Source: an uncultured Methanosarcinales archaeon (GTDB lineage: Archaea; Nanobdellota; Nanobdellia; Woesearchaeales; DSVV01). From it: a DNA stretch of 34,335 nt. Position 1 is the stretch's first letter. Each line of letters starts with the position of its first letter. The notes beneath the pieces are model-generated. The model did no database searches. It was not told the DNA's origin and saw nothing but the letters and a program-made list of their open reading frames with translations. Position numbers and translations under genes: made by a program. The stretch is taken from positions 1-34,335 of the forward strand of contig CAZQHZ010000014.1 of the NCBI GenBank assembly GCA_964593285.1, read 5' to 3'. Shown here in pieces: positions 4,663 through 34,304 of this stretch.

Positions 4663-4746
4663 GCGGGGGTGCCGGAGTGGTCAAACGGGCTAGGTTGAGG
4701 GCCTAGTGACTTAGTGTCTGCGCGAGTTCAAACCTCGTCTCCCGCA
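4663..4746 (+). tRNA. tRNA-Leu(GAG)
   Basis: Acceptor GCGGGGG/TCTCCCGC region plus A discriminator, anticodon arm CTAGG-TTGAGGG-CCTAG, long variable arm, T loop TTCAAAC; conserved position between rpoD and eL18. Confidence 0.95.
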
Positions 4747-7380: not shown

Positions 7381-7453
7381 AGCACGGGATGGGACTCGAA
7401 CCCATGAATAATCGGGTTGCAGCCGATCGCCTTAGCCGCTTGGCTACCCGTGC
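7381..7453 (-). tRNA. tRNA-Cys(GCA)
   Basis: Reverse complement GCACGGG..CCCGTGC-T; anticodon arm ATCGG-CTGCAAC-CCGAT; T loop TTCGAGT. Confidence 0.95.
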
Positions 7454-7458
7454 ATAAA

Positions 7459-7533
7459 CGGATCTGAAGGGATTCGAACCCTTGATCTACGGCTTAGAAG
7501 GCCGTCGCATTATCCAGACTATGCTACAGATCC
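7459..7533 (-). tRNA. tRNA-Arg(TCT)
   Basis: Reverse complement GGATCTG..CAGATCC-G; anticodon arm ACGGC-CTTCTAA-GCCGT; T loop TTCGAAT; 5 nt upstream of tRNA-Cys. Confidence 0.95.
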
Positions 7534-7697
7534 AATAAAATTAGGAATTATAAGCTTTTTTTAAATGTTTTTATTTGTACAAGTATTAAAATAATTAGAC
7601 TTAATTTTATTATAATTTAATTAAGACCAGTGGACATTCTTGTGTGAAATATATAAATCAAATACACCTATTATATTTTATAACTGAGGTGATAAAT

Positions 7698-19059: not shown

Positions 19060-20229
19060 TTAACCAAACATATTTATGAAAGAATTATCGTTTTCATCTA
19101 TTGTCTTAATTTTAGTAATAGCTTTTATGAAATCTTCTTGTATTATTTTTTCTCGTTTTTCTCTAATTGCAAAATAACCAGCTTCAGTTGCAACTGCAAA
19201 AATTTCAGCACCAGATAGACCCTCTAGTTTATCACAAATTAAATCAATATCAACTTTTTTATCAAAATTCATATTTTTTGTATGTATTTTAAAAATTTCT
19301 TTAATTCCATCTTTTTTTGGTAATGGAACTTCTATTAATCTATCAAATCTACCTGGCCTTAATATTGCTGGATCTAGTGTATCAATACGATTAGTACAAC
19401 CAATTATTTTTACATTTCCAAGTGGTTTAAAACCATCAATTTCTGCAAGTAATTGCATAAATGTTCTTTGAACTTCTCGCTCGCCAGATGTTCCAAGTTC
19501 GATACGCTTTGATGCAATAGCATCAATTTCATCAATAAAAATAACAGAAGGTGATTTTTCTCTAGCTAACTGAAATACTTCTTTAACTAATTTTGATCCT
19601 TCACCTATAAATTTTTGAACTAATTCTGAACCTACTATTTCAATAAAAGTTGAATTTGTAGATGCTGCAACTGCTTTTGCAAGTAAAGTTTTACCAGTTC
19701 CAGGCGGACCATTTAATAAAACTCCTTTTGGAGGAGTAATTCCAACTTTTTTGAACAATTTTGGATTTGTTAATGGAAGCTCAACAACTTCTTTTATTTC
19801 TTCAATTTTATCTTTAAGACCACCAATAGAATTCCAATTAATTTTTGGTTTTTCAACAATTACAAAACTTTCAACATTAAATTGTTTACTTACATCAACT
19901 TTTTCAACAATTGTTAAATTTTTTTGTTCACACAAAACTGTATTTCCAGCACCAATATCTGTACAATCAGAAGAAATACCTACAAAAAATTTATTACCAT
20001 TTGGTGTTTTAATAATTGCTTTGTCTTTAATAACTTCACAAATATCACAAACCATTAATGCAGGTTGCCGATATTTATTAATTTCAGTTTGTAAATGGTT
20101 TATAGTTTCTCTTAATATTTTATTTTCCCATTCTAATTTTGCTTCAAAAGCTTCTTTTTCAGAACCACTTGCTGAAGGATTATTTGAAGACATTCTATTT
20201 TCAAGAAGCCTATTAAACTCGCTATCCAT
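19060..20229 (-). CDS. pan: proteasome-activating nucleotidase (AAA+ ATPase)
   Basis: N-terminal coiled coil and OB region, GPPGTGKT, ELVQKFIGEG pore loop, IFIDEID, REVQRT, DPAILRPGRFDR; C-terminal MFG (HbYX-like). Confidence 0.95.
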   Translation of the reverse strand: MDSEFNRLLENRMSSNNPSASGSEKEAFEAKLEWENKILRETINHLQTEINKYRQPALMVCDICEVIKDKAIIKTPNGNKFFVGISSDCTDIGAGNTVLCEQKNLTIVEKVDVSKQFNVESFVIVEKPKINWNSIGGLKDKIEEIKEVVELPLTNPKLFKKVGITPPKGVLLNGPPGTGKTLLAKAVAASTNSTFIEIVGSELVQKFIGEGSKLVKEVFQLAREKSPSVIFIDEIDAIASKRIELGTSGEREVQRTFMQLLAEIDGFKPLGNVKIIGCTNRIDTLDPAILRPGRFDRLIEVPLPKKDGIKEIFKIHTKNMNFDKKVDIDLICDKLEGLSGAEIFAVATEAGYFAIREKREKIIQEDFIKAITKIKTIDENDNSFINMFG

Positions 20230-21829: not shown

Positions 21830-22480
21830 TCATTCAACGTATTTTATTCCAATAAATTTTTCATTTTTTCTATAAGGACTTACTTGATATATTTTATAAT
21901 GTGCTTTTTTAACTTCACTTGTATTTTTTTTTATTGAATTTAATACATCTAAATTAGGTATCTGACCAAGTGAGATTCCATAAATTTGAGTAATACCTGA
22001 AAATAAATCAAATGCATAATCAAGTGGATCATCAGATAATTTCTCAGTAACTTTGTATTTTGCTTCAACATAATCATGCCTTCTATAAGTGAATTTTTTT
22101 AAACTATTATTGATATCTTTAGAACATTTATCAGTTTTTCTATTTGTTGAATTAATAATATGTAAAACATTATTGTGAGCCTGACTATAATTTTTATTTT
22201 TTATATAGTTATTAATCCTATTAATTTTAGATTCATATTTGTTTAAGCATAATTTTGCATCCATTTGTTCTTCTTGTCTTTTTAAATTAGATACTAATTC
22301 ATCTAAACTTGAAGGTTTTTTATTTATTTTTTGAACATTTTTTTGTATTACCATATTAGATTTTGCATAATCTTTTGATTTAAGTCTATCACCTCCAGTA
22401 TAATATGTTTCTTGTGTAATACAACCAGATAAACTTAATGCAACTAATCCACAAGCAATTACATTTTTAATATAATTCAT
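21830..22480 (-). CDS. putative lipoprotein or secreted protein
   Basis: Start moved to the ATG at 22480 after SD AGGTGA; signal peptide with lipobox LSGC. Confidence 0.7.
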   Translation of the reverse strand: MNYIKNVIACGLVALSLSGCITQETYYTGGDRLKSKDYAKSNMVIQKNVQKINKKPSSLDELVSNLKRQEEQMDAKLCLNKYESKINRINNYIKNKNYSQAHNNVLHIINSTNRKTDKCSKDINNSLKKFTYRRHDYVEAKYKVTEKLSDDPLDYAFDLFSGITQIYGISLGQIPNLDVLNSIKKNTSEVKKAHYKIYQVSPYRKNEKFIGIKYVE

Positions 22481-22492
22481 TTTTATCACCTA

Positions 22493-23959
22493 TTATCTTA
22501 AATAAATATTTGAAAACAACCCCTTATTTTTTTCATACTGAATTTTTTGTTCAAGATCTTTTTGCATATCTAATGCTCGTTTTAATTGATTATTATCTCC
22601 TGTTGTTGCTATTTTATTAATTTTTAAAAATTCATCAGCATATTGCTCTCTTTTTGCATTTGCATATCTTGAAATAAGTTTTTGAAATCGTTTTTCATAA
22701 TCTATTGCTTGATTTATAATGTTATTTTTTTCTGGAAAATTTTCATTTCTTAGTTTTTCAATAATTTTTTTATTATCTTTATGACTTTCTATCATTTTAT
22801 ATGGATTATTACTTCTCAATGAATTTTCATAAGAATTTAATTCATTTTTATATGATTGAATTAATTCAGAATATGGATTTTTCTTTTCTTCGATTTTTTT
22901 GGAACTTTTAATTGAATTTTTTTTTGGTTGTGAATGATTATAAGATTTAGAAACAACATCGCTAATTTCAACAGTTTTAGTATATGATTGATTAGCGTCA
23001 ATATTTTTATTTTTATCAAAACAGCCATTAATTGAATATATTAAAAAAGAAGTTACAATAATTCCTGCAACAATTCCTCTCTTTATTTTTGTTGGAATTA
23101 ATTTAATTATTTGTGAAAATTCAGATTCATCATCAAAAGAATAATTAGGAGTTTCTTGATTAATATTTCTGAAATTATCAATAGGATTAGTATAATTTTC
23201 ATCAATATTATTATAATCTACTTTAGGTTTATCCTCTTTTTGTATTTTTCTTTTTTTAAAATTTATTTTTTTATTGTCTTTTGAAGATAATCCTGATTTT
23301 TTTGTTTGTTTTTTTTGATTAACTTTCTTTTTAATACAAAAATTTTGTTGATTTTTTGTAGTTTCATTAATTTTGTTTGATTTTAAATATTCTAAAATAA
23401 CTTTATTTTTTTTATTAGTTGGTAAAATATTTAATGTATCATATAAAAATTTTAAAGGCTTTTTTTTAGAATTATTAAAAGAGAATAATTTTTTATCATC
23501 AAGTTTTTTATATAAATCATTAACCAAAATTAAAGATTCAATATCGTATACATCATTACAATTATTAATCAACCAACAAATATTTTTTTGATTTAATTCG
23601 TTTTCAATAATATGTGATAATATTTTTATTTCATTAAAGTCTTTATTATTTTTTTGATTTTGTCTTTTATTTTTTTTTGCATTTAGATTTTTATCTAATA
23701 TAAGATAATTTATTTCTTCAATTGACAATAATTTATCTTCATTAAATTTTGGAATTAAATATCTAATTAAATCATTTCCTACAATACTTGCAAATGAAGA
23801 ATCTTTTTCAACAATTTTTTTTAGATGATTTTTATTTAAATTATCTGTAAAATATTTTACAATATAATTTTTATCTAAAAAATCTAAATCAAAAACATCT
23901 TTTCTTTTTTTTGTTTTTAAAATTATATCTTCTAAAATTATTCTTTCATTTATTTTCAT
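22493..23959 (-). CDS. single-pass membrane protein, hypothetical
   Basis: 488 aa; K/N-rich N-terminal region, TM GIVAGIIVTSFLIYSI, C-terminal helical region. Confidence 0.7.
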   Translation of the reverse strand: MKINERIILEDIILKTKKRKDVFDLDFLDKNYIVKYFTDNLNKNHLKKIVEKDSSFASIVGNDLIRYLIPKFNEDKLLSIEEINYLILDKNLNAKKNKRQNQKNNKDFNEIKILSHIIENELNQKNICWLINNCNDVYDIESLILVNDLYKKLDDKKLFSFNNSKKKPLKFLYDTLNILPTNKKNKVILEYLKSNKINETTKNQQNFCIKKKVNQKKQTKKSGLSSKDNKKINFKKRKIQKEDKPKVDYNNIDENYTNPIDNFRNINQETPNYSFDDESEFSQIIKLIPTKIKRGIVAGIIVTSFLIYSINGCFDKNKNIDANQSYTKTVEISDVVSKSYNHSQPKKNSIKSSKKIEEKKNPYSELIQSYKNELNSYENSLRSNNPYKMIESHKDNKKIIEKLRNENFPEKNNIINQAIDYEKRFQKLISRYANAKREQYADEFLKINKIATTGDNNQLKRALDMQKDLEQKIQYEKNKGLFSNIYLR

Positions 23960-24003: not shown

Positions 24004-24044
24004 AATTGAAAATTTTTCGGATTTTTTTTATAAAAGTTTATTAA
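24004..24044 (+). promoter_or_regulatory. operator plus BRE/TATA promoter, copy 1
   Basis: AATTGAAAATTTTTCGG-N12-AAAGTTTATTAA, same arrangement as 28532-28572. Confidence 0.7.
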
Positions 24045-24104
24045 GAACATTTGACTAACAAAACGTAAGGTAAATAATACAAAATATACTCATGGGTGAT
24101 AATC

Positions 24105-25226
24105 ATGCAAGATTATGAAGATAATATTAAAAAAGAAAACAAAAGGCCAAAAAAACTTTTTTTAAATGAAGATGAAAAACCAAAATACATTCCAAAAAAA
24201 TTATTTAATAAAGAATATAAAAATTACTCTAATGATACACAAGATACTATATCTAATAATTTTGATGAAATAATAAAGCAAGAAAATATTAATGAACCAG
24301 AAATTGAAAAACTTTATAATTTTAACAATCAAAACTATCCAATATCAACTATTTCAATCGATGAACTTGATAATTGTGTTAAAAATGTAGGAATAGGACA
24401 AAAAAAACTTGAGACAATTATATTAAAAAATAATTCTAAAATTTATAAATATTCTAATTTAGCATATAATGAAATAAAAAAATTAATGGGATTTAAAAAA
24501 CCACAAGAAGAGACAATATTAGATATTTTCATGGAACAACAAGATAATGTGTCATATATGAATTCTGTTTTAGTTAATCTTATTAGGAAACATGAGCCTG
24601 AAATTTTAAAATATAATCAAGAACTTGAAAATGCAATAAATCAGGCTGTTTATTACAATAAAAGTAAAGAATTTTATAGACAAAAATCTCCAAAAGCAAT
24701 TCAAACATTTAATGAAGCACAAAATACATTATCAAAAATTGAAAGGAAAAAAGATCCAGAAAAATATTATAATGTTTTAAAAAATAAAGAAAAAGCAAAA
24801 TACAATTTAATAGAAATGAGAACAAATTGCTTTTTATCAGATATGTTTTCTACGCACTATGAAAAAGCAATTGATAAAATGGTATACATACATGAAATAA
24901 GCAGTAATTTAATGTCAAGTGTTAAAGGAATTGCAACAAAAACTAAATTATATCAAGAAATGTTATATAATACTGTTAAAGATTGGCAAAGAATTACTGA
25001 TCTTAGTATGTCAGTAAAAGCTGTAAGCAAAGGAGTATTAAGCTTATCTAATTATCATAAACAAATGGAAGAAATGTATATAAAATCAGTTAAATCAATA
25101 ATTGAATGCCAAAATCAAAATATTGAAGGAAAAATGATTGATAAATCTTTAAAAAATCTTTCATCCTTATCATCTGAAGTGGATAAAAGTATGTATAATA
25201 CTACAAAAATATATTTAGATAAATAA
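24105..25226 (+). CDS. hypothetical alpha-helical/coiled-coil protein
   Basis: Start moved to ATG 24105 after SD GGGTGA; long amphipathic helices; first gene of the Ubl-JAB unit. Confidence 0.75.
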   Translation: MQDYEDNIKKENKRPKKLFLNEDEKPKYIPKKLFNKEYKNYSNDTQDTISNNFDEIIKQENINEPEIEKLYNFNNQNYPISTISIDELDNCVKNVGIGQKKLETIILKNNSKIYKYSNLAYNEIKKLMGFKKPQEETILDIFMEQQDNVSYMNSVLVNLIRKHEPEILKYNQELENAINQAVYYNKSKEFYRQKSPKAIQTFNEAQNTLSKIERKKDPEKYYNVLKNKEKAKYNLIEMRTNCFLSDMFSTHYEKAIDKMVYIHEISSNLMSSVKGIATKTKLYQEMLYNTVKDWQRITDLSMSVKAVSKGVLSLSNYHKQMEEMYIKSVKSIIECQNQNIEGKMIDKSLKNLSSLSSEVDKSMYNTTKIYLDK

Positions 25227-25255
25227 AATAAATAAAACAAATGGGGGAGATAAAA

Positions 25256-25702
25256 ATGAGTTTAGATTTATTATTGGGGGTTTTATACCCAAATGACAAA
25301 AAAAAAAATGAAAGTATTAAAAGGGTTTTGCCAGAGGAATATTATGGAATAGAAGTTTCAAATTTTGTAGAAAGAATGCTTGATTCAGAACCTGATTTTT
25401 ATAATCCAACAAAATATACCGAAGATGAAGAAGAATTATGTGACAAAGCAATAGAAAATATTAATTTTTACCAGAATCGAAATGATACTCAAATGATAAT
25501 AAAAGCCAATACAAATGAAAATTCAGAATATTATCCTGAAAAAATAAATCTTAACATAAAAGATGAATTATGTGAATATACTGGTGATATTGTACAACAA
25601 AAAACGATGAAGCTTCCAAATGGAGAAGAAAAATATGTAAGTGTAATTGAAATGTATATAAATTTTGATGCAACAGGTGGAGCAAAAAAAAATTATAAAT
25701 AA
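25256..25702 (+). CDS. candidate ubiquitin-like modifier precursor (GG plus AKKNYK tail)
   Basis: C-terminus VIEMYINFDATGG-AKKNYK; lies directly upstream of a JAB protease; start likely ATG 25256 after SD GGGGAG. The ORF is solid, the Ubl call is inference. Confidence 0.5.
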   Translation: MSLDLLLGVLYPNDKKKNESIKRVLPEEYYGIEVSNFVERMLDSEPDFYNPTKYTEDEEELCDKAIENINFYQNRNDTQMIIKANTNENSEYYPEKINLNIKDELCEYTGDIVQQKTMKLPNGEEKYVSVIEMYINFDATGGAKKNYK

Positions 25703-25738
25703 ATTTTTTATTTTTTTATATTTTTTAAGGTGTTATAA

Positions 25739-27988
25739 ATGGATGAAGCAGTTGAATTTGCCAAAGAAATTCTTAAAAAAAATAATAGAATTAATGAATA
25801 TGATTTTAATAAAGGAATTGATAAATTTGATACATCTACAATAGATTATAAAGAAAAAATAACACTTGATTCTCTTCTTGAAACTGATTATAGATCGTAT
25901 CAAGATTATGTTAATCCAAGAAATCCACTAATGCCACTTGAATTTTATAGATTAGCAATTGAAAATGCAAAAAATTTATCTAAATATGAAAAAAATGGTG
26001 AATTTGATTCTTTAGCATATGAAAATAGTAAAGAAAAAGAGATTAGTGATAAACTTTTAAAAGAATATAAAAATAGGCAAATTGCAAGAAACATAAACAA
26101 AAAAATAAACAAACATGTTTTTAATGAAATATCAAATGTTATGATTGATACATATGCAGTTGAAAAAATATATACCTTAATAGATCAAGTTTATGAACTA
26201 TCAAGAGAAAAACTAAATGATAGTATTGAATGTGAATTCTATTTATTATCAAAGCAAGATGAAAACGGACACAATATCATAAAAGATATATTTTTTGAAG
26301 CACCACAATATAATATACAAACAAGATGCGAAGGACTTTTAAAAGATGAAACAAGAAAAATTTTAGATAAGAAAAAAATTGATTATGATATTTTAGGTTG
26401 GAGTCATTCACATGGTAATTTAGGATTATTTTTTTCACTATCAGATGATGTAGTAATAAATATAAGTAAACACATGTCACTATTAAACCCAAAAATTAAC
26501 TATGAAAATGAAACATTTACAATAGAAAATAAAGTTCCAATATCTATTGTATTTAATAGATCAAAAAAAAATCCCCCTTATAGAGCAACAATAGATAAAC
26601 CAAGAGTAGTGTATAATAATAATAATAATAATAATGAAATATTAAGAATAAAAGAAGATAAAATAGATATCGCAAACACCTATGAAAATAATTTTTCAAA
26701 TAAATGTATATCATTAAATGTTATAAAAGATCCTGAAAATAAAAAAGTTGATGTTAATTATATTAGGGATATGGTTGACAAATATATTATTTCTTATTAT
26801 AAAAACCCTGTAAAATTTGCTTTAGATACAGGAAGAAGTCCTATTAGAGATAAAGTTTATATTGGTAATAAATACAAAAACATAAAACGAGAATATGAAA
26901 TTAATCCAAACACTATTTTTGTAGATCCTGTTAAAAAAGTAAGATTTGATCCAAAAAAATTCATTGAAGATTATGAAAAAAATATACAAAAAGAAGAAAA
27001 AGAAGAAGAAAATAAAAATAAACCAGAAAATAAAACAATTGATGTTGATTTTGAAATTATAGACGAGAAAAAACAAGAAGTAAAAAATCAAAAAAAATTA
27101 GAAGATAAACTAAAAGATAAAACAATTAATAATAATAATAATAATAATAAACAAAACGAAATAAATAATGAAAATTATAAAATTAATGATAAAAATATAA
27201 ATAGTAATTTGTTATCAAGAATAGTTTCATATACTAAAAATTTTTTTAAAAAACAAAAATCAGAAATTAAATCAAAACAAAATTATCAAAAACAAAATTA
27301 TGAAAATTTAAAATATAATAAAAAAAATAAAACAAAAAACAATTTTTATAATATTTTTCAAAAATCAAAAATTAAAAAACCAAAAAAATTATTTAATACA
27401 AATAATAATAATTTAGAAAAAAAAAATAAATCATCCGGAAATCTTTCAGATTTAGTGAAAAAATTTAGCAAAAAAATATTTTCCCTTGAAGAAAATAATT
27501 ATAAATTAAATCAAGAATGTCTTTTTCTTCAAGAAAGTTATATAAAACTTTTAGATGAATACCAAAGTCTTGAAAACAAAATAAAAAATAATAAAATTTA
27601 CTATAATAATAATAATAATAATAATAATATAAAAAATAACAATTACAAACAAAATTATAGAACTGCAATAAAAGACTATCATTATAAATATTCAAATCAT
27701 GATTCAAATCTTGGATTAATTTCTAAAATGCTTTCAGGAGACTATAGAGGATCAATTGATAATATAAAAAGAGGAGAATTAACTGAAAAACCAAAAGAAA
27801 AAAGATTATGGAAATGGACTGAAAGATTTGAAGCTTTAGCTGAAATGCACAAAAAAGACAAAAATTATTTTAAAAATATGGATACGAATGCAAAAAATGA
27901 ATTATTAAATATTATAAAAAATAACACTTACTTAACAAGAAAACACAAAAACATTAAAAAAAAAATCTTACAAATGATTGAAACATAA
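25739..27988 (+). CDS. JAB/MPN+ metalloprotease domain protein with long low-complexity C-terminal extension
   Basis: IECEFYLL followed by ILGWSHSHGNLGLFFSLSDD, matching the JAMM motif E..HxH-x7-S-x2-D; PISIVFN strand. Confidence 0.85.
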   Translation: MDEAVEFAKEILKKNNRINEYDFNKGIDKFDTSTIDYKEKITLDSLLETDYRSYQDYVNPRNPLMPLEFYRLAIENAKNLSKYEKNGEFDSLAYENSKEKEISDKLLKEYKNRQIARNINKKINKHVFNEISNVMIDTYAVEKIYTLIDQVYELSREKLNDSIECEFYLLSKQDENGHNIIKDIFFEAPQYNIQTRCEGLLKDETRKILDKKKIDYDILGWSHSHGNLGLFFSLSDDVVINISKHMSLLNPKINYENETFTIENKVPISIVFNRSKKNPPYRATIDKPRVVYNNNNNNNEILRIKEDKIDIANTYENNFSNKCISLNVIKDPENKKVDVNYIRDMVDKYIISYYKNPVKFALDTGRSPIRDKVYIGNKYKNIKREYEINPNTIFVDPVKKVRFDPKKFIEDYEKNIQKEEKEEENKNKPENKTIDVDFEIIDEKKQEVKNQKKLEDKLKDKTINNNNNNNKQNEINNENYKINDKNINSNLLSRIVSYTKNFFKKQKSEIKSKQNYQKQNYENLKYNKKNKTKNNFYNIFQKSKIKKPKKLFNTNNNNLEKKNKSSGNLSDLVKKFSKKIFSLEENNYKLNQECLFLQESYIKLLDEYQSLENKIKNNKIYYNNNNNNNNIKNNNYKQNYRTAIKDYHYKYSNHDSNLGLISKMLSGDYRGSIDNIKRGELTEKPKEKRLWKWTERFEALAEMHKKDKNYFKNMDTNAKNELLNIIKNNTYLTRKHKNIKKKILQMIET

Positions 27989-28061
27989 ATAATTTTTAAT
28001 AAAAAAATAAATATTATGTTTTTTATTTTATTTACAAGGTAATATAAATGAAGGAAAAAAT

Positions 28062-28377
28062 ATGATTGTTGATGTAGATTATGAAATATTAGATAATAAT
28101 ATTAAAAAACCAAAGATCAAAAAATATGAAAAAAATAATAATCAAGATGTGAGGGAAAATAATCAAACCAAAAATATTTCTGATTTAGTAACAAAATTAA
28201 ATAAAAAAATATCTGTTTATGAAAAAATAATTATGAATTAAATCAAGAATGTCTTTTTCTTCAAGAAATTTATATAAAGTTTTTAGATGAATACAAAAGT
28301 CTTGAAAATAAAATAAACAATAATAATAATAATATAATAATGATGCAAATTATAACTAAAATTAAACATTATAAATA
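28062..28377 (+). pseudogene. degenerate, frameshifted partial duplicate of the JAB gene C-terminal region
   Basis: MIVDVDYEILD resembles TIDVDFEIID; NISDLVTKLNKKI resembles NLSDLVKKFSKKI; after a 1-nt deletion near 28221-28228 the other frame reads NNYELNQECLFLQEIYIKFLDEYKSLENKI, nearly identical to 27494-27584. Confidence 0.75.
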
Positions 28378-28413
28378 ATTGAAAATTTTTCGGTTTTTTC
28401 CTCTGAAAGTTTA

Positions 28414-28513
28414 NNNNNNNNNNNNNNNNNNNNNNNNNNNNNNNNNNNNNNNNNNNNNNNNNNNNNNNNNNNNNNNNNNNNNNNNNNNNNNNNNNNNNNN
28501 NNNNNNNNNNNNN
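28414..28513. other. scaffold gap (100 N) flanked by an identical 55-bp overlap
   Basis: 28359-28413 is identical to 28514-28568. Confidence 0.95.
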
Positions 28514-28531
28514 AAATTAAACATTATAAAT

Positions 28532-28572
28532 AATTGAAAATTTTTCGGTTTTTTCCTCTGAAAGTTTATTAA
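28532..28572 (+). promoter_or_regulatory. operator plus BRE/TATA promoter, copy 2
   Basis: AATTGAAAATTTTTCGG-N12-AAAGTTTATTAA; TATA about 23 nt upstream of ATG 28595. Confidence 0.7.
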
Positions 28573-28594
28573 TAATTATTGCTAATATTATTTT

Positions 28595-29857
28595 ATGAAA
28601 TATCTAGAAGATAATTTTTTAAATCATTTAAATAATACAAATGAAACATTTACAATAATAAATGATAGACTTTATACATTTTCAAAAATAGATTCAAATT
28701 TAAAAAATAATTATCTATATCATAATAATCTTAAAATTAAGCTTGAAGAAAGTGAAAAAATATCTAATCTTGAAGAAAAATTATTTCAAATAAATAAAGA
28801 ATTAATCAAAAAAGATCTTGTTTATAATATTAAAAAAGAAATAGATTGTAATTATAATGAGATAATAAATTTTAAAAAAACAATTGATTCATATAATGAT
28901 GATAATTTTATGAAAAATTTTATAGTTAATTATTTATTTAAAAATTATTGTTCAACAGATAAAATTCCTTTAGATTCATTAAAAATAGAAAAATTTGATA
29001 ATAAAAAAATACAAAATAAAAATTTATCATATCTAAATATTAATACATCATATTTTAGTAAAAATTATGATTTAGGTTTATTAACAATCGATTCTAAATG
29101 TTATATTTTAAAAACAAAAAATAATAATTCAAAAAATAATCAATACTTAATGCTTAATAATAAAAAATTATATCTAACAAAATCATTCCATATAAAAGAA
29201 TTAACTGAAAATTATAATAATGCAATAAAAAATTATCTATTATATTTATTTAAAAAAAAATCTCCAGAAATAAAAAAATATATCAAATTTTTAGATGAAA
29301 ATAACAAAAAGATAATGAAAATAAAAAATAATTCAAATGAATTATCAATAGGTAAATTATCATGCAAAAAAATAAATGAAAATAAATATAAGATAAATAA
29401 AAAAATTCCTGCTTTTATTTTTGGGTTTAAAAGTAAATATTATCATTTTCCTGAAACTGAAATGTATATTGATTTGATAAAAAATAAAAATTCTATTGAA
29501 TTTTTAAATAAACCTTCTATTTCAAATAAAAACTTACCATATAATCATCCCTTTGTCTACATTGATGGAAGAATATGTTTAGGCAATGATTCAATAAATA
29601 ATCTTGAAAATTTCAATTTTTTTACAGATAAAAATTATGATCTAAAAAATCTTAATTTAATTGCAAAAGCAATTACAAATTCATTTGAAAAAACACAGTC
29701 TGTTCTTGAAAAAGGATTTTTTTTATCAAATATAGTTCCAGCAGATGGCTTGTGGAAAAATAATGCAAAAATAATTGCAAGTAATATTAGTGATGCAAAA
29801 AAATTTGCAAAAAAAAATAATATATCTAACAGAATTTTTGAACAAAACGCAAAATGA
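28595..29857 (+). CDS. E2/UBC-like protein (prokaryotic E2 family) with N-terminal extension
   Basis: PYNHPFVYIDGRICLG matches the E2 active-site signature HPN(V/I)..(D/N)G.ICL; candidate catalytic Cys328 (29576-29578); adjacent to an E1. Confidence 0.68.
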   Translation: MKYLEDNFLNHLNNTNETFTIINDRLYTFSKIDSNLKNNYLYHNNLKIKLEESEKISNLEEKLFQINKELIKKDLVYNIKKEIDCNYNEIINFKKTIDSYNDDNFMKNFIVNYLFKNYCSTDKIPLDSLKIEKFDNKKIQNKNLSYLNINTSYFSKNYDLGLLTIDSKCYILKTKNNNSKNNQYLMLNNKKLYLTKSFHIKELTENYNNAIKNYLLYLFKKKSPEIKKYIKFLDENNKKIMKIKNNSNELSIGKLSCKKINENKYKINKKIPAFIFGFKSKYYHFPETEMYIDLIKNKNSIEFLNKPSISNKNLPYNHPFVYIDGRICLGNDSINNLENFNFFTDKNYDLKNLNLIAKAITNSFEKTQSVLEKGFFLSNIVPADGLWKNNAKIIASNISDAKKFAKKNNISNRIFEQNAK

Positions 29858-29864
29858 TTTTAAA

Positions 29865-31379
29865 ATGACTAGTTCGATATATAAAAATATTATTACATGG
29901 GGAAAAGAAAATCAAAAAAAGATTTCAAATTACCATGTTTGTATATTAGGTTCAGACATATTATCTCAAATGCTATTATCATGCCTTGCAGGAATTGGTA
30001 TTGGACAGATAAGTATATTAGACAATGAAAGAATTTATAGAAAAAATAAAAATTTTTTAATAGAAAATGTTGACAATAATTTAGGTCTAGAAAAAGTATA
30101 TTTTATCAAATATGTATTAAATCTTATAAATGAAGATATTAAAATAAATCCTATATTTTCAAAATTAAATGAAGCATTAATGTATTCTTTAAAACCAAAT
30201 ATAATAATTGATGCAACAAATGATATTTACAATAAAGAATTATCCACATTTTATGCATATAAAAATAAACTTCCATATATCTCATTATTTTCTGATAATA
30301 GTGGATGTAGCTTAACAACATATTATCCAAATAAAAAAAATTCTAAAAAAAACTTTCATAATAGCCTTGAAAATATAATTAATAATTGTAAAGATAATAA
30401 TTCACAAGATATATCAACAAGTGGAATTATATCAGGAATTGCATGCGAAGAAATTAGAAAAATATTGTTTAAATATGATGAAAAAGATTTAATTTTAGAT
30501 TCTAATGAATCAATAACTTATGATACAAATAGTAATAATAGTAATAATAATAGAAAAAATATATTAACTAAAAAAAATAATTATCTAAAAAAAAAGTTAA
30601 AACTATTGATTGCGGGCAGTGGTGCAATTGGAAATATTGTTGCATTAAATTGTGCATTTCAAAATGTTGATAGAATAGATATAATTGATTATGATAAAAT
30701 AGAAAAACATAATCTTAATCGACAGATATTACTTTATGATGAAATTAATGAATACAAATCAAAAATTATTGCAAAAAGAATAAAAAACATAAATCCAGAA
30801 ATTAATATTGGTTATTGTATTGGAAAAATTGGTGAATTAACAAAAAAAGAAGATATTGAATTTTTAAAAAATATCTATAAAAATGATAAAAAAGATTGGT
30901 TATCTAGAAATAATAATCAAAATTTTATCAGTTTTAAAGAATATCAAAATAAATTTTTCAAAACAAATGATAAAACAATTTCTTTAATTGATGAAGATTT
31001 ACTTAAAGAAAAAAAATATGACATAATATTTGGATGTCTTGATAATAAATATCCAAGAATTTGGCTTGATATAATGTCAAAAAGATATAATATACCATAT
31101 GTAGATGGAGGCACAAATTCATACATGGGACAAGCTGATTTTTATTATCCAAATAAAACTAATACAATTTCCAATCAAAAAGGTTTATTATCATATAAAT
31201 TTCCAGATGAATTTATTTCTTGTATAGACCAACCTGAAGGTAGCGTTGTTATGTCAAATATGATTATTGGAAGTTTAATGGTAAAAGAAGGTTTAAATTA
31301 TCTTAATAAAGATAAAAAAAATATAAAAACACCAATAAAATACAATTGCAGAACAAAAGAAAAGCTTTCATATGGCTAA
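29865..31379 (+). CDS. E1/ThiF-family activating enzyme with tandem inactive and active adenylation domains
   Basis: Domain 1 WGKENQKKI..VCILGSDILS (degenerate Gly loop); domain 2 IAGSGAIG, IIDYDKIEKHNLNRQ, GCLDN..R, YVDGGT; candidate catalytic Cys in FISCIDQP (31221-31223); start moved to ATG 29865. Confidence 0.88.
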   Translation: MTSSIYKNIITWGKENQKKISNYHVCILGSDILSQMLLSCLAGIGIGQISILDNERIYRKNKNFLIENVDNNLGLEKVYFIKYVLNLINEDIKINPIFSKLNEALMYSLKPNIIIDATNDIYNKELSTFYAYKNKLPYISLFSDNSGCSLTTYYPNKKNSKKNFHNSLENIINNCKDNNSQDISTSGIISGIACEEIRKILFKYDEKDLILDSNESITYDTNSNNSNNNRKNILTKKNNYLKKKLKLLIAGSGAIGNIVALNCAFQNVDRIDIIDYDKIEKHNLNRQILLYDEINEYKSKIIAKRIKNINPEINIGYCIGKIGELTKKEDIEFLKNIYKNDKKDWLSRNNNQNFISFKEYQNKFFKTNDKTISLIDEDLLKEKKYDIIFGCLDNKYPRIWLDIMSKRYNIPYVDGGTNSYMGQADFYYPNKTNTISNQKGLLSYKFPDEFISCIDQPEGSVVMSNMIIGSLMVKEGLNYLNKDKKNIKTPIKYNCRTKEKLSYG

Positions 31380-31411: not shown

Positions 31412-33217
31412 CTAATCAAATTTTACTAATTCTCCTTTTTGCATTATATAATGTTTTTGATTGTTTGAATCAATTCCATAAATATCTAATTTTTGTGCTT
31501 TTGCATCAATTACAATATCACTATGATATTCTGTTGCCCTATCTTCTTCAAATCCAGAACCAATAGCCACATGAATCATCCCTGCAATTTTTTCATTTAC
31601 AATTAAATAATCACACAATTTTGCTTTTGGATTTGTATTAACTGCAAATTCACCAATTAAGTTAAAATTTTTCTTTTTAATATCAATTATTTTTTTTGGA
31701 AGTGATTTAAACTTTTCTTGTTTTTTAATTAAATTCCAAGCTTGTTTTTTTTTAGTGTTAATTTTTTCAATAATTTTTTTTGGTCCATCTATTATTTTAT
31801 ATTTTTTTTTAGTTGAAGAAATAACTAAAGGTTTTTTTTTATTTAATGGATAACTCTCATCAATATTAATTACAACATCACCAACAATTAAACCAGTAAC
31901 AAATTCAGGAGTTAAAAACATCTCACCACCAGGTAAATTTGCCATAGTTCCTGCTTTAATTTTCGTTTTTTTAAAAAAATTTTTATTAATTAAATTTCTA
32001 ATTTCAACATCTGACCCTTTAACTTCTCTTCTTTTACCATCCTTTTTAATTAAACCAACTTCAAAATTTGTTAAATATTTTTTGTTAGATTTAACTTTAG
32101 ATTCAACAATTATTTTTTCACATTTAATTGCAATTTTTTTTAAAAAAACATTTTTAGCTTTAATTTCATCCCAATTTACATTACAAGTTTCAATAAAAAT
32201 TTCTATTGGAAGTGTTTCAGTAAAACCAACTCTTGCTTTTGGAGGTCTTGTTTCAAATTTAGTTTGAGGGGCATAACTTGGTTTATAAATAATTCCTGCA
32301 GGATTTTGCCATCGTGATTTTTTATTAGGCGTTGGATACCCTATTTTTTGACCAAAACTATGACTACCAGGATAGCCCTTTCCAGAAATAAAAAAATTAG
32401 CAGAACTAAATTTAATTTTAGATGTTTTAATAAATTTAGATAATTCTTTAAATTTTTTAAATATATCTTCATTAATATTTTTTGACAGCTCACATCCAAT
32501 AAGTAAAGATTTAAAATCGTTAATTTTTTCCATTTTATCAAGCATAGATTTTTTTTGACTAAAACCTTGCATTGAAATATTATTTGTAATATTTAATGCA
32601 GAATTAGCCATTTTGTAACAAATAAAATAAGAATCTAAATAATCAAATAATTTATTACCTAATATTTTTTTATTTGGAATAAGTAAAAATCCAATTGAAA
32701 TATTTTCATTTTTTTTCAAATTATAAACATTATTCCAAATATTATCTGCAGTATTAAGTAATAATTTTGGTTTTCTTTTTTTAATCCAATTAATTTTATA
32801 CTCTAAATTAAAACTACCATAAAAGCCATCTTTATTACATCTTAAAATGTAATCTGGTGCTTTAAATAAATGCTCAATTTCTTTTGTTTTTAATTTTTTC
32901 TCAACAGATTTTAAAAAATTACTTAAAGCTAAAACACTTTTATTTTTTGATTTATTTTTAAATTGTTTATATATTTTCCAAGAATTAATCATACTTTCTA
33001 AAATAAATGAATCATTATTAAAACACATAACATGTAAATTAGCACCTAATTCATCTAATGCCATTGAAAGTGCTGCTGTTGAAAAGAATGCTTTTTCATT
33101 TTCTAAATCAAATATTAATAAAAAATTCTTTGACTTAACAATTCCTAACTTTTTTTTATAATAATTAACACAATCTAAAAATTTTTTCTCATCATATTTT
33201 TTTATTTTTAAAACCAT
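31412..33217 (-). CDS. M29-family (thermophilic metalloprotease/aminopeptidase T-like) peptidase
   Basis: NLPGGEMF, GEFAVNTN, NEKIAGMIHVAIG, HSD motifs; start likely ATG 33217 after GAGG. Confidence 0.75.
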   Translation of the reverse strand: MVLKIKKYDEKKFLDCVNYYKKKLGIVKSKNFLLIFDLENEKAFFSTAALSMALDELGANLHVMCFNNDSFILESMINSWKIYKQFKNKSKNKSVLALSNFLKSVEKKLKTKEIEHLFKAPDYILRCNKDGFYGSFNLEYKINWIKKRKPKLLLNTADNIWNNVYNLKKNENISIGFLLIPNKKILGNKLFDYLDSYFICYKMANSALNITNNISMQGFSQKKSMLDKMEKINDFKSLLIGCELSKNINEDIFKKFKELSKFIKTSKIKFSSANFFISGKGYPGSHSFGQKIGYPTPNKKSRWQNPAGIIYKPSYAPQTKFETRPPKARVGFTETLPIEIFIETCNVNWDEIKAKNVFLKKIAIKCEKIIVESKVKSNKKYLTNFEVGLIKKDGKRREVKGSDVEIRNLINKNFFKKTKIKAGTMANLPGGEMFLTPEFVTGLIVGDVVINIDESYPLNKKKPLVISSTKKKYKIIDGPKKIIEKINTKKKQAWNLIKKQEKFKSLPKKIIDIKKKNFNLIGEFAVNTNPKAKLCDYLIVNEKIAGMIHVAIGSGFEEDRATEYHSDIVIDAKAQKLDIYGIDSNNQKHYIMQKGELVKFD

Positions 33218-33233
33218 CTTTACAAAACCTCTT

Positions 33234-34304
33234 TTATTTGTCAATAATAATTAATTCTTTTTTTGTTTTAGTTAAAACAATACATTTATTTTTTTTAACT
33301 AAAATAGTATCTTCAATTCTAACCCCAAATTTATTTTCAAAATAAATCCCAGGTTCAATTGCAATAGTCATATTTTCATATAAAATATCTTTTGAACTTG
33401 AATTAATACTAGGACATTCATGAATATTAACACCAACACCATGACCTAATGCATGAATAAAATTTTTACTATATTTTCCTAAACTTTTTCTTGTAAAATT
33501 ATCAATATCACTTGATTTTATATTATCTTTAATCATTTTTATTGAATTAATTTGTGTATTTAAAACTAAATTATACATTTCTAATTCAAATTTATTTGGC
33601 TTTCCAATATAAAAAGTTCTTGAAATATCTGATTTATAACCTAAATAATCAACACCAAAATCAATTAACAAAAAACCATTTTTTATTTTTGAATTTAATT
33701 TTGAATAATGAGGAAAGCTAGAATTAATAGATGATGCAATAATTATATCAAATGATGGCTTACAATTATTATCATATATTTTTTTTAATAAAAATGCTTT
33801 TGCACATTTTTCTGTTTTAAAATTTTTAATATTATTAATAAAATCATTTAAGATTAAATCAGTAATTTTACATGCTTTTTTTATTTTTGTAATTTCATCA
33901 TTATCTTTTATTGATAAAATCAAATTAACTTCATTAGGAAAATCTAAAAATTTTGTTTTTTTAAAATATTTTTTTAATTTATTTAATTCAAATAAACTAA
34001 TTTTTTTAAAATCAATCATTATTTTAGTTAATTTTTTATTTTTTAATAAATTAAAAATTTCTAAAAATAAATTTTGATTAAAACAAAGTAATTTTGAATT
34101 TTTGATGTTTTTTTTCGCAAAAGAATACTCCATTTTTGAAACAAAACAATTTAAGTTTCCTTTTTTTGGTATAATTAAGAAACTATAATCTACATTTAAA
34201 TTTACAAGAGAATAAATTCTTTTATCTTTATTAAAAATATTTGAAAAAAATATACAGTCAATATCATTTTTTGACAAATATTTTTGTAATTTATTTATTT
34301 TCAT
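33234..34304 (-). CDS. Xaa-Pro aminopeptidase/prolidase (M24B)
   Basis: FPH, IDFG..YKSDISRT, HALGHGVG..IHE, IEPGIY, GVRIED. Confidence 0.93.
   Translation of the reverse strand: MKINKLQKYLSKNDIDCIFFSNIFNKDKRIYSLVNLNVDYSFLIIPKKGNLNCFVSKMEYSFAKKNIKNSKLLCFNQNLFLEIFNLLKNKKLTKIMIDFKKISLFELNKLKKYFKKTKFLDFPNEVNLILSIKDNDEITKIKKACKITDLILNDFINNIKNFKTEKCAKAFLLKKIYDNNCKPSFDIIIASSINSSFPHYSKLNSKIKNGFLLIDFGVDYLGYKSDISRTFYIGKPNKFELEMYNLVLNTQINSIKMIKDNIKSSDIDNFTRKSLGKYSKNFIHALGHGVGVNIHECPSINSSSKDILYENMTIAIEPGIYFENKFGVRIEDTILVKKNKCIVLTKTKKELIIIDK

Follow-up and report, generated by a model that had tools for sequence, protein, structure and literature searches.

Gene content and layout of the locus

The window (the whole stretch of 34,335 nucleotides that was analyzed) contains five co-oriented ORFs, as the earlier note had described; these were confirmed, their catalytic residues were checked, and a Pfam scan was run. 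The cluster comprises the following features:

24006–24046, + strand: upstream motif copy 1 (15-nt element and TATA-like tract), candidate promoter or operator of the CC–Ubl–JAB unit
24105–25226, + strand: CC ORF, 373 amino acids
25256–25702, + strand: Ubl ORF, 148 amino acids
25739–27988, + strand: JAB ORF, 749 amino acids
28040–28330, + strand: decayed partial copy of the middle part of the JAB gene, with no intact ORF (93% over 103 nt; tblastn)
28415–28514, no strand: scaffold gap of 100 N between JAB and E2, with identical 55-nt flanks
28534–28574, + strand: upstream motif copy 2, candidate promoter of the E2–E1 unit
28595–29857, + strand: E2 ORF, 420 amino acids
29865–31379, + strand: E1 ORF with an ATG start, 504 amino acids

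The full upstream motif, in which the 15 nt are followed by the TATA-like AT-rich tract, has just two occurrences in the genome, one ahead of CC and one ahead of E2, so the cluster probably consists of two co-regulated units; judged from its sequence, the motif may act as a promoter. The Ubl, JAB, E2, and E1 ORFs are intact, retain their catalytic residues, and are each present in a single copy in the genome. Their order in the window, Ubl–JAB–E2–E1, is one of the rarer types (4 of 72 complete loci), the commonest being Ubl–E2–JAB–E1 (39 of 72). No contig bridging the 100-N gap was found among those listed from three public runs. This gap, the decayed JAB duplicate, the rare gene order, and the loss of a Zn site from E1 would all fit a window copy that is decaying or mis-scaffolded, with the family functional elsewhere. 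We consider this quite improbable, in view of the four intact single-copy ORFs with their catalytic residues, the same motif ahead of both halves, and close E1 homologs with 77% and 54% identity.

Predicted folds and catalytic residues

The Ubl and E2 proteins could not be matched by sequence to any Pfam family, and neither yielded a Foldseek match with E < 0.001. Across Pfam, NCBIfam, and PADLOC, E1 alone was named among the five window proteins, besides the sole PADLOC match on Ubl, which was weak (E = 0.009). The Ubl is predicted to adopt a beta-grasp fold with an inserted helix at residues 56–73 (AF2 pLDDT 89), and the top 50 VIA rows of its fold search were ubiquitin-like folds, including chain B of the Bil complex entry 8tyz. 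The top matches were eukaryote-type Ubls and the Bil Ubl, and ThiS/MoaD were absent from these 50. The beta-grasp fold, the lack of which the earlier note had set in advance as a refutation, is thus borne out by the predicted structure and the fold matches. Its identification of the protein as a pro-Ubl also fits the C-terminus, where Gly141-Gly142 follows the last strand and precedes a tail of six residues; the termini were also compared across the family. The JAB protein contains a JAMM domain at about residues 121–353 with the residues E164, H223, H225, S233, and D236, followed by a low-complexity linker and a conserved C-terminal domain at about 641–749. One JAB family member exceeded the Pfam Prok-JAB cut-off. 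The earlier note had ascribed a large extension to every component, which holds only in part: E1 has the usual length of a two-domain E1, and the additions to the Ubl are insertions within it.

The predicted structure of the E2 protein is UBC-like, in agreement with the earlier note, but is divergent and interrupted after helix 1, as follows:

E2 residues about 15–99: module 1
E2 residues 102–119: UBC helix 1
E2 residues about 158–245: module 2
E2 residues 249–420: UBC sheet and helices

The two modules are copies of a beta-hairpin/long-helix unit that we call novel; because they were modeled only within the whole E2, we do not claim an unknown fold for them. Within the UBC part, His318-Pro319 lies ahead of the candidate catalytic Cys328, which is near-invariant in the family (81 of 82 sequences). 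The column of the canonical HPN Asn is occupied by Phe in 78% of the family, and no His column after Cys328 is conserved at ≥55%. This E2 differs from canonical UBC-fold E2s in lacking both the HPN Asn and a continuous domain. The family comprises 900 sequence clusters at 50% identity, with lengths of 300–600 amino acids. A search of PDB sequences with the E2 profile returned nothing significant, and a short E2 query had no match in annotated phages.

The E1 protein consists of an inactive adenylation domain followed by an active one in a single chain, and Pfam assigned two ThiF matches, as anticipated. ATP motifs are kept only in the second domain (G251/G253/G256, D275, N283, R286, K298, and D393), and the candidate catalytic Cys453, near-invariant in the family (74 of 76 sequences), lies in a short crossover loop. 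In 84 E1s, a median of 18 residues (range 6–55) separated the catalytic Cys from the second Zn-Cys position, and 7 came after the catalytic Cys. The Zn cysteines are lost in the window E1 and present in most relatives. The E1 consensus ends shortly after the active adenylation domain (AAD), and Pfam gave only ThiF and Rossmann families in 85 E1s. In a model of the complex, module 1 of E2 docks on E1's inactive adenylation domain (IAD) with a score of 0.74, against 0.09 for the best control.

When the E1 profile was compared with the PDB, the best sequence matches were SAE2, UBA1, and UBA3, and no Bil entry occurred among the best 60 of 83 matches. A special kinship with eukaryotic E1s was nevertheless rejected: in a quick tree (FastTree only), UBA1-type E1s grouped with a cyanobacterial plasmid E1, apart from this family, so that sisterhood is not supported. 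The best NCBIfam matches of E1 were ThiF/MoeB models, all below cut-off (UbaA model, 59 bits; cut-off, 450). Together with a crossover loop as short as that of MoeB and a cysteine desulfurase near the operon at four loci of one subfamily, this could indicate a sulfur-carrier or small-molecule pathway resembling ThiS, MoaD, or SAMP, in which the Ubl is thiocarboxylated or ligated to something other than a protein, the "E2" then serving a different function. Such a pathway is very improbable given that a UBC-fold protein with a near-invariant Cys is almost always linked to it, the Ubl fold matches described above, and the absence of a rhodanese domain from all 85 E1s. The earlier note had seen no sulfur-transfer genes nearby, and across the genome there was likewise no match to ThiS/MoaD or MoaE.

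Distribution and genomic context in related archaea

Of 401 genomes sampled from the order, 79 carried the E2 family, the relatives being labeled Nanobdellota or Woesearchaeota; overall, 15–20% of the sampled genomes carry the system, and about four fifths of the sampled relatives lack it. Among 100 loci fetched around E2 matches, E1 was present in 90 and all four genes in 63, a co-occurrence far above chance. Ubl, JAB, E2, and E1 are a conserved four-gene module, and the synteny that the earlier note had proposed to look for in relatives exists. A regex detected RING in 0 of 2317 ORFs of the loci and nowhere in the genome, in line with the E3-less reading of that note; this absence rests on the regex, the Pfam RING search having been run without a positive control. 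Word-based searches, which reach close relatives only, found no E1 relatives in viral or metagenome contigs; in genome contigs they turned up a single distant locus, from a bacterium. On plasmids and phages, tblastn with E1s returned mostly MoeB/ThiF.

The CC protein, for which no Pfam or NCBIfam family was found, is probably helical by sequence. It was rejected as a core component, as which it had been counted, on both locus counts and genome co-occurrence: CC is present at 13 of 111 loci, a further 20 CC loci lack E2, E1, and JAB, and E2 occurs in 13 of 49 CC-bearing non-seed genomes versus 66 of 388 overall (hand count). We regard it as an accessory protein. The CC gene often adjoins a transglutaminase-like gene. 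A likeness of CC to TelA (score 0.88; 10% of members) is a weak lead.

A defence-island context was rejected, as near neighbors were no richer in PADLOC matches than far ones (4 of 148 versus 5 of 150), and the near matches comprised kinases of a generic kind along with cysteine desulfurases. There is thus no direct support for a role against viruses or in host interaction, as raised in the earlier note. No member of the BubE family was present among 73 neighbors scanned. A co-oriented AAA+ ATPase lies within four genes at 11 of 111 loci, the best scores of the tested examples, under the cut-offs, being with models of ClpX or of the Pup-type proteasome ATPase, and Ser/Thr kinases accompany 10 loci. 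The genome encodes proteasome alpha and beta subunits, and a PAN gene lies 4 kb upstream. With the lack of defence islands, these neighbors suggest that the same chemistry might tag proteins of the cell itself to be unfolded or broken down by the proteasome, as in ubiquitin- or Pup-like quality control or regulation. We find this doubtful, since 100 of the 111 loci, including that in the window, have no such ATPase, most sampled relatives lack the system, and its extreme divergence and tree incongruence are unusual for a housekeeping function.

The family has diverged rapidly and includes paralogs and large accessory proteins of obscure nature. DPANN archaea are generally host-dependent, and these traits would also suit a presumed symbiont that exports the tag or the enzymes to modify host proteins. 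This is rather improbable: a crude hydropathy count predicted transmembrane segments in only 1 of 93 Ubl, 2 of 125 E2, and 2 of 108 JAB proteins, and no secretion genes recurred among the neighbors.

A proposed conjugation cascade and its relation to known systems

The genes, residue conservation, and synteny, together with the predicted folds and the modeled E1:E2 contact, point, with a probability of roughly 0.8, to a ubiquitin-like cascade that conjugates proteins without an E3 and belongs to a family encountered to date in Nanoarchaeia-type archaea. Predicted folds and synteny likewise fit the core of the earlier note, namely, a complete Ubl/JAB/E2/E1 set in a DPANN-type archaeon that does not serve sulfur transfer. 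We infer all four steps from Bil and eukaryotic chemistry. The JAB protease would remove the tail and expose Gly142; the active domain of E1 would adenylate the Ubl and load it as a thioester on Cys453; the N-terminal module of E2 would tether to the inactive domain of E1, and the UBC part, on a long helical arm, would take the Ubl on Cys328; and E2 would pass it to target lysines without an E3, a link that JAB could reverse. More speculatively, this swinging arm may stand in for the mobile Cys domain and UFD missing from E1.

In SAMP/UbaA/JAMM1 and ThiS-MoaD/ThiF-MoeB systems, the E1 is homodimeric and single-domain, and to our knowledge they have no E2. The present system shares with them a ThiF-family adenylation domain, a JAMM protease, and a Gly-Gly beta-grasp protein, but differs in its two-domain single-chain E1, its E2, and the lack of a ThiS-family Ubl match. 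With eukaryotic UBA1, SAE2, and UBA3 and their E2s, it has in common the IAD+AAD pseudo-dimer in one chain, the UBC-like fold, and the HP...C spacing; FCCH, SCCH, and UFD are missing. Language-model neighbors of E2 carry Prok-E2_D, PF14460 (score 0.92; 85% and 33% of members), which is a lead only. Prok-E2_D proteins are linked to PRTRC cassettes. A scan of 151 genomes from the class, three of them carrying this E2, gave no match to PF14460.

As far as the accessible part of the description goes, Bil Types I and II (BilABCD) likewise consist of four genes, for Ubl, E2, JAB, and E1 (bioRxiv 10.1101/2023.09.26.559546), and share the order that is commonest here, a single-chain IAD+AAD E1 without UFD, the Zn site of most relatives, a pro-Ubl tail after a conserved Gly, and the absence of an E3. 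By the same partial description, BilD has a helical CYS domain of about 80 amino acids in the crossover loop, which is lacking here (Pfam PF14459, 0 of 85 E1s); in BilB a conserved His (CEHH type) follows the Cys, whereas here no His is conserved after the Cys and HP precedes it; and BilB contacts the AAD close to the C-terminal Zn, whereas our E2 is modeled on the IAD. The length and duplicated module of the E2, the archaeal hosts, and the neighborhood also differ. BilB and BilD were set apart from this family by published description, and by description the system is a new archaeal variant that would work like bacterial Bil yet lacks BilB and BilD features. The Caldiarchaeum/Asgard operons, in the available portion of their account (PMC5654768), are similarly archaeal, with a pro-ubiquitin trimmed by a JAMM protease and a cysteine cascade through E1 and E2, but have a small RING E3 and a C-terminal UBL domain on E1, neither of which was found here, where the Ubl and E2 also went unmatched in Pfam. 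Bub, as partly described (PMC11601596), uses oxyesters on Tyr (E1) and Ser (E2), fused genes, and the BubE protease, in contrast to Cys at both positions and separate genes here. None of the papers listed in the literature searches dealt with such a system in Woesearchaeota, Pacearchaeota, or Nanobdellota.

For the purpose of the cascade, we think biological conflict likeliest, at a little under even odds, with the tag serving, as in Bil, to disable proteins of viral or other foreign origin. We also tentatively propose an independent archaeal lineage of Ubl conjugation, widespread in Nanoarchaeia and diversified there into subfamilies, in which an inserted, duplicated module anchors E2 with its coiled-coil arm on the dead E1 domain, a build unseen in solved structures. 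The movement needed for thioester transfer might come from E2 rather than E1, and E2 might perhaps choose the targets as well, in place of an E3. Subfamilies might each link the tag with unfoldases, kinases, or large accessory proteins of their own. In the sources as far as accessible, the groups with described complete E1–E2–Ubl–JAB cascades are eukaryotes and Aigarchaeota/Asgard archaea, along with bacteria that have them in scattered operons. The present family would add a large branch, carried by a reduced archaeal lineage, whose Ubl and E2 were missed by Pfam and NCBIfam. Its minimal single-chain E1, with neither Cys domain nor UFD, bears on the origin of canonical E1s and of E1–E2 recruitment, and, as all four proteins look soluble, the chemistry could be tested directly in E. 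coli.

Genomic setting of the cluster

The genome of the window (1.18 Mb, 95.9% complete) carries genes for proteasome subunits as well as archaeal ribosomal and RNA polymerase genes. The source labels of the E1 and E2 homologues were Nanobdellota, Nanoarchaeia, or Woesearchaeota, and the host probably belongs to the order Woesearchaeales. The five ORFs and motifs described in the earlier note were all found in the window sequence, and their residues were checked:

24105–25226, forward strand: CC, a 373-aa accessory protein
25256–25702, forward strand: Ubl, a pro-Ubl
25739–27988, forward strand: JAB, a JAMM protease
28595–29857, forward strand: E2
29865–31379, forward strand: E1

The E1 start codon (ATG 29865) follows the E2 stop codon after 7 nt. 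The interval between JAB and E2 holds a decayed, partial duplication of JAB together with a scaffold gap of 100 N flanked by identical 55-nt sequences; none of the listed contigs from three public runs bridged this gap, though both sides were covered. Upstream of both CC and E2 is a 15-nt motif followed by a TATA-like tract, an arrangement that ties the two halves of the cluster together and suggests that they may be two co-regulated units. The exact 15-mer occurred at one more genomic site, without the tract, and shuffles gave 0–2 one-mismatch sites.

Among the neighbors, PAN is encoded 4 kb upstream of the cluster (19060–20229), and an M24 peptidase is encoded directly downstream on the opposite strand, as is a protein of 610 aa (31412–34304); the latter shows aminopeptidase-like motifs by eye and matched no family. 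The nearness of these three genes to the cluster is probably coincidental. Two divergently transcribed genes at 21830–23959, encoding proteins of 219 aa (lipoprotein-like N-terminus) and 488 aa (one predicted membrane segment), also matched no family. Genes for tRNA-Leu, tRNA-Cys, and tRNA-Arg (4663–4746 and 7381–7534) adjoin the ribosomal protein cluster.

Protein features and the modeled E1:E2 complex

E2 matched no Pfam family. Its structural model (146 alignment rows, pLDDT 89) aligned to E2s of the UBC fold over most of their length in 19 of the 50 rows of a wide structure search, and all 50 rows of a re-ranked Foldseek list were UBC E2s. Z was below 8 and the Foldseek E-values were non-significant, so that consistency, coverage, and the motif are the basis for calling the fold; on this basis the model supports the UBC-like fold proposed earlier for 28595–29857. 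The aligned range begins near residue 102, with UBC helix 1 predicted at residues 102–119 and the remainder at 249–420, separated by an insertion. Residues 15–99 are homologous to residues 158–245 (HH probability 97.8, E = 1e-12; control pairs ≤1%), and each of these two modules consists of four strands and a long helix. Cys328 was invariant in 146 E2 sequences; of the 82 locus E2s, 81 had it. The HP...C spacing is the same as in an E2 annotated on a cyanobacterial plasmid, to which the score was weak.

E1 contains two ThiF domains, of which only the second retains the ATP site. Cys453 was present in 74 of 76 sequences, the two misses being gaps, and lies in a short loop (median 18 + 7 residues). 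The Zn cysteines, found in 62/76 and 58/76 relatives, are lost in the window's E1. Although the closest PDB sequence matches were eukaryotic E1s, a FastTree of 110 active domains placed the family apart from both the UBA1-type and MoeB/ThiF rows (support 92), with one long-branched member straying. A plasmid of Crinalium (NC_019754; locus L162, 5923–9400) carries an E1, two small Ubl-like genes, a canonical-type E2, and a JAB; in a quick tree, its E1 grouped with UBA1-type eukaryotic E1s (support 95).

The modeled E1:E2 complex scored 0.74, compared with 0.09 for the best control. Of 157 solved complexes, 116 attained the score mark, as did 2 of 215 mismatched pairs; these figures are only roughly valid with the alignments used. 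The runs shared at least 97% of contacts, with partner pLDDT of at least 75. In the model, residues 54, 97–108, 122, and 126 of the inactive E1 domain would contact residues 6–66 of E2 (module 1); the UBC domain made no confident contacts, and the interface residues were not notably conserved. In contrast, BilB, the E2 of the bacterial Bil system, docks on the active domain close to the Zn site according to the Chambers et al. preprint, which makes it less likely that the score reflects memory of solved E1:E2 complexes. The model supports a putative binding of E1 and E2 to each other.

The JAMM site of JAB comprises Glu164, His223, His225, Ser233, and Asp236. The strict pattern occurred in 76 of 92 JAB domains, and most of the others had HxH with longer spacing. 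The long JAB tail is of low complexity up to its C-terminal domain, a conserved stretch of 100 residues that 15 proteins share, 13 of them JABs. In a strain-variant contig from three public runs, 12/146 nt differed at window 25412–25478 (Ubl residues 53–75); the figures for E2 and E1 contigs were 4/864 nt and 13/1952 nt, and a second cluster of differences fell at E2 residues 262–280. Six of the nine codon changes listed were non-synonymous, several reversing charge on the inserted helix. As a lead only, these listed changes hint at local diversification.

Distribution and gene content in relatives

The E2 profile matched 79/401 genomes of the order and 60/401 genomes of a phylum sample, 15 of the 60 belonging to the class but to different orders; unpublished genomes (G144 and G324; G232) are counted in these tallies and contributed to no other result. 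A full HMM search with E2 yielded 900 clusters at 50% identity. Around 100 E2 matches, drawn from the match tables as a subset of all matches, E1 was found in 90 loci, JAB in 83, Ubl in 72, and all four within five co-oriented genes in 63, so that the expected synteny in relatives was borne out; these counts, like the others for loci, are descriptions rather than tests, as kin are not independent. Several loci with missing genes were at contig ends, and in 9 of the 26 examined without a Ubl match, the gene before E2 matched the Ubl profile weakly. Adding loci first picked by E1 gave 111 loci, 72 of them complete, with the orders Ubl-E2-JAB-E1 (39, seven with a second JAB), Ubl-E2-E1-JAB (26), Ubl-JAB-E2-E1 (four, including the window), and others (three). 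E1 and E2 distances were correlated (rho 0.65, 94 loci), as expected for genes inherited together. The operon is real and well conserved.

CC was found in 13/111 loci and a transglutaminase-like gene in 11/111; 20 other CC loci lacked the enzymes, seven of them with a transglutaminase-like gene nearby. CC (24105–25226 in the window) and this Cys-His-Asp gene recur as a pair, whether the Ubl operon is there or not (L122–L141), and in the window's genome they lie on different contigs. One genome (G036) carries four E1 loci of different subfamilies (L028, L030, L031, and L032). One subfamily (L026, L042, L043, L045, L047, L048, L050, L051, and L054) has a fixed downstream module of a 270-aa unknown protein, a Ser/Thr kinase, and a 200-aa gene, with NAD-metabolism genes near several loci. 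In another (L027, L029, L033, L044, L046, L052, L055, and L056), the Ubl terminus is Pro-Gly, unknown proteins of 870–1240 aa follow E1, some adjoining a radical SAM paralogue, and a cysteine desulfurase lies upstream in four loci.

Known systems and possible purpose

The system resembles Bil, as far as the preprint passages describe it, in gene set, gene order, E1 layout, pro-Ubl, and the absence of an E3. It differs in that BilD (E1) has a CYS domain of approximately 80 residues where a short Cys453 loop occurs here, and in that E2 lacks the His feature described for BilB. The Caldiarchaeum/Asgard type has, in the parts of Hennell James et al. consulted, a RING protein and an E1 UBL domain, neither of which occurs here, and the system is not of the SAMP type nor, judging from Ye et al., of the Bub type. 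The suspected lack of a RING/E3 held, as no RING pattern was found in the loci or the genome. The genome also had no further ThiF match and, in line with the earlier report of no sulfur-transfer genes nearby, no match to ThiS or MoaE (controls were detected in 11–12 of 14 genomes). Literature searches found no description of this archaeal system, although the Bil and Bub supplementary operon tables and subscription papers could contain archaeal members. DPANN, Woesearchaeota, and Pacearchaeota were absent from the portion of the Hennell James et al. supplement searched, as was "archaea" from passages of the Gong preprint; term searches of PMC11354881 and of the first 300,000 characters of PMC7203096 had no matches.

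Among subfamily additions, the kinase module occurred in 10 loci, large unknown proteins in 20, and AAA+ ATPases in 11, the ATPases tested being Mpa-like or ClpX-like. Mpa/ARC-like and ClpX-like ATPases were seen in or beside the operon at L070 (10159–11649), L142, L062 (2476–3627), L107, L150, and L156. Such ATPases point to degradation, and degradation or regulation as the purpose is a minority reading that we consider rather unlikely. The antiviral context raised in the earlier note gained nothing from PADLOC, which showed no enrichment in near neighbors (4/148, sampled from 467) over far neighbors (5/150, from 504), a weak control from the same loci with PADLOC coverage of DPANN defenses judged poor. 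One host family was scattered over the E1 tree (six changes; 172/500 shuffles as low). Patchiness, paralogues, deep divergence, and this scatter point to biological conflict, a purpose that we favor tentatively, at slightly below even odds. Compared with Bil by description, the system is a new form of ubiquitin-like conjugation whose E2 is distinctive, and we put the probability that its chemistry is ubiquitin-like conjugation at roughly 0.8.
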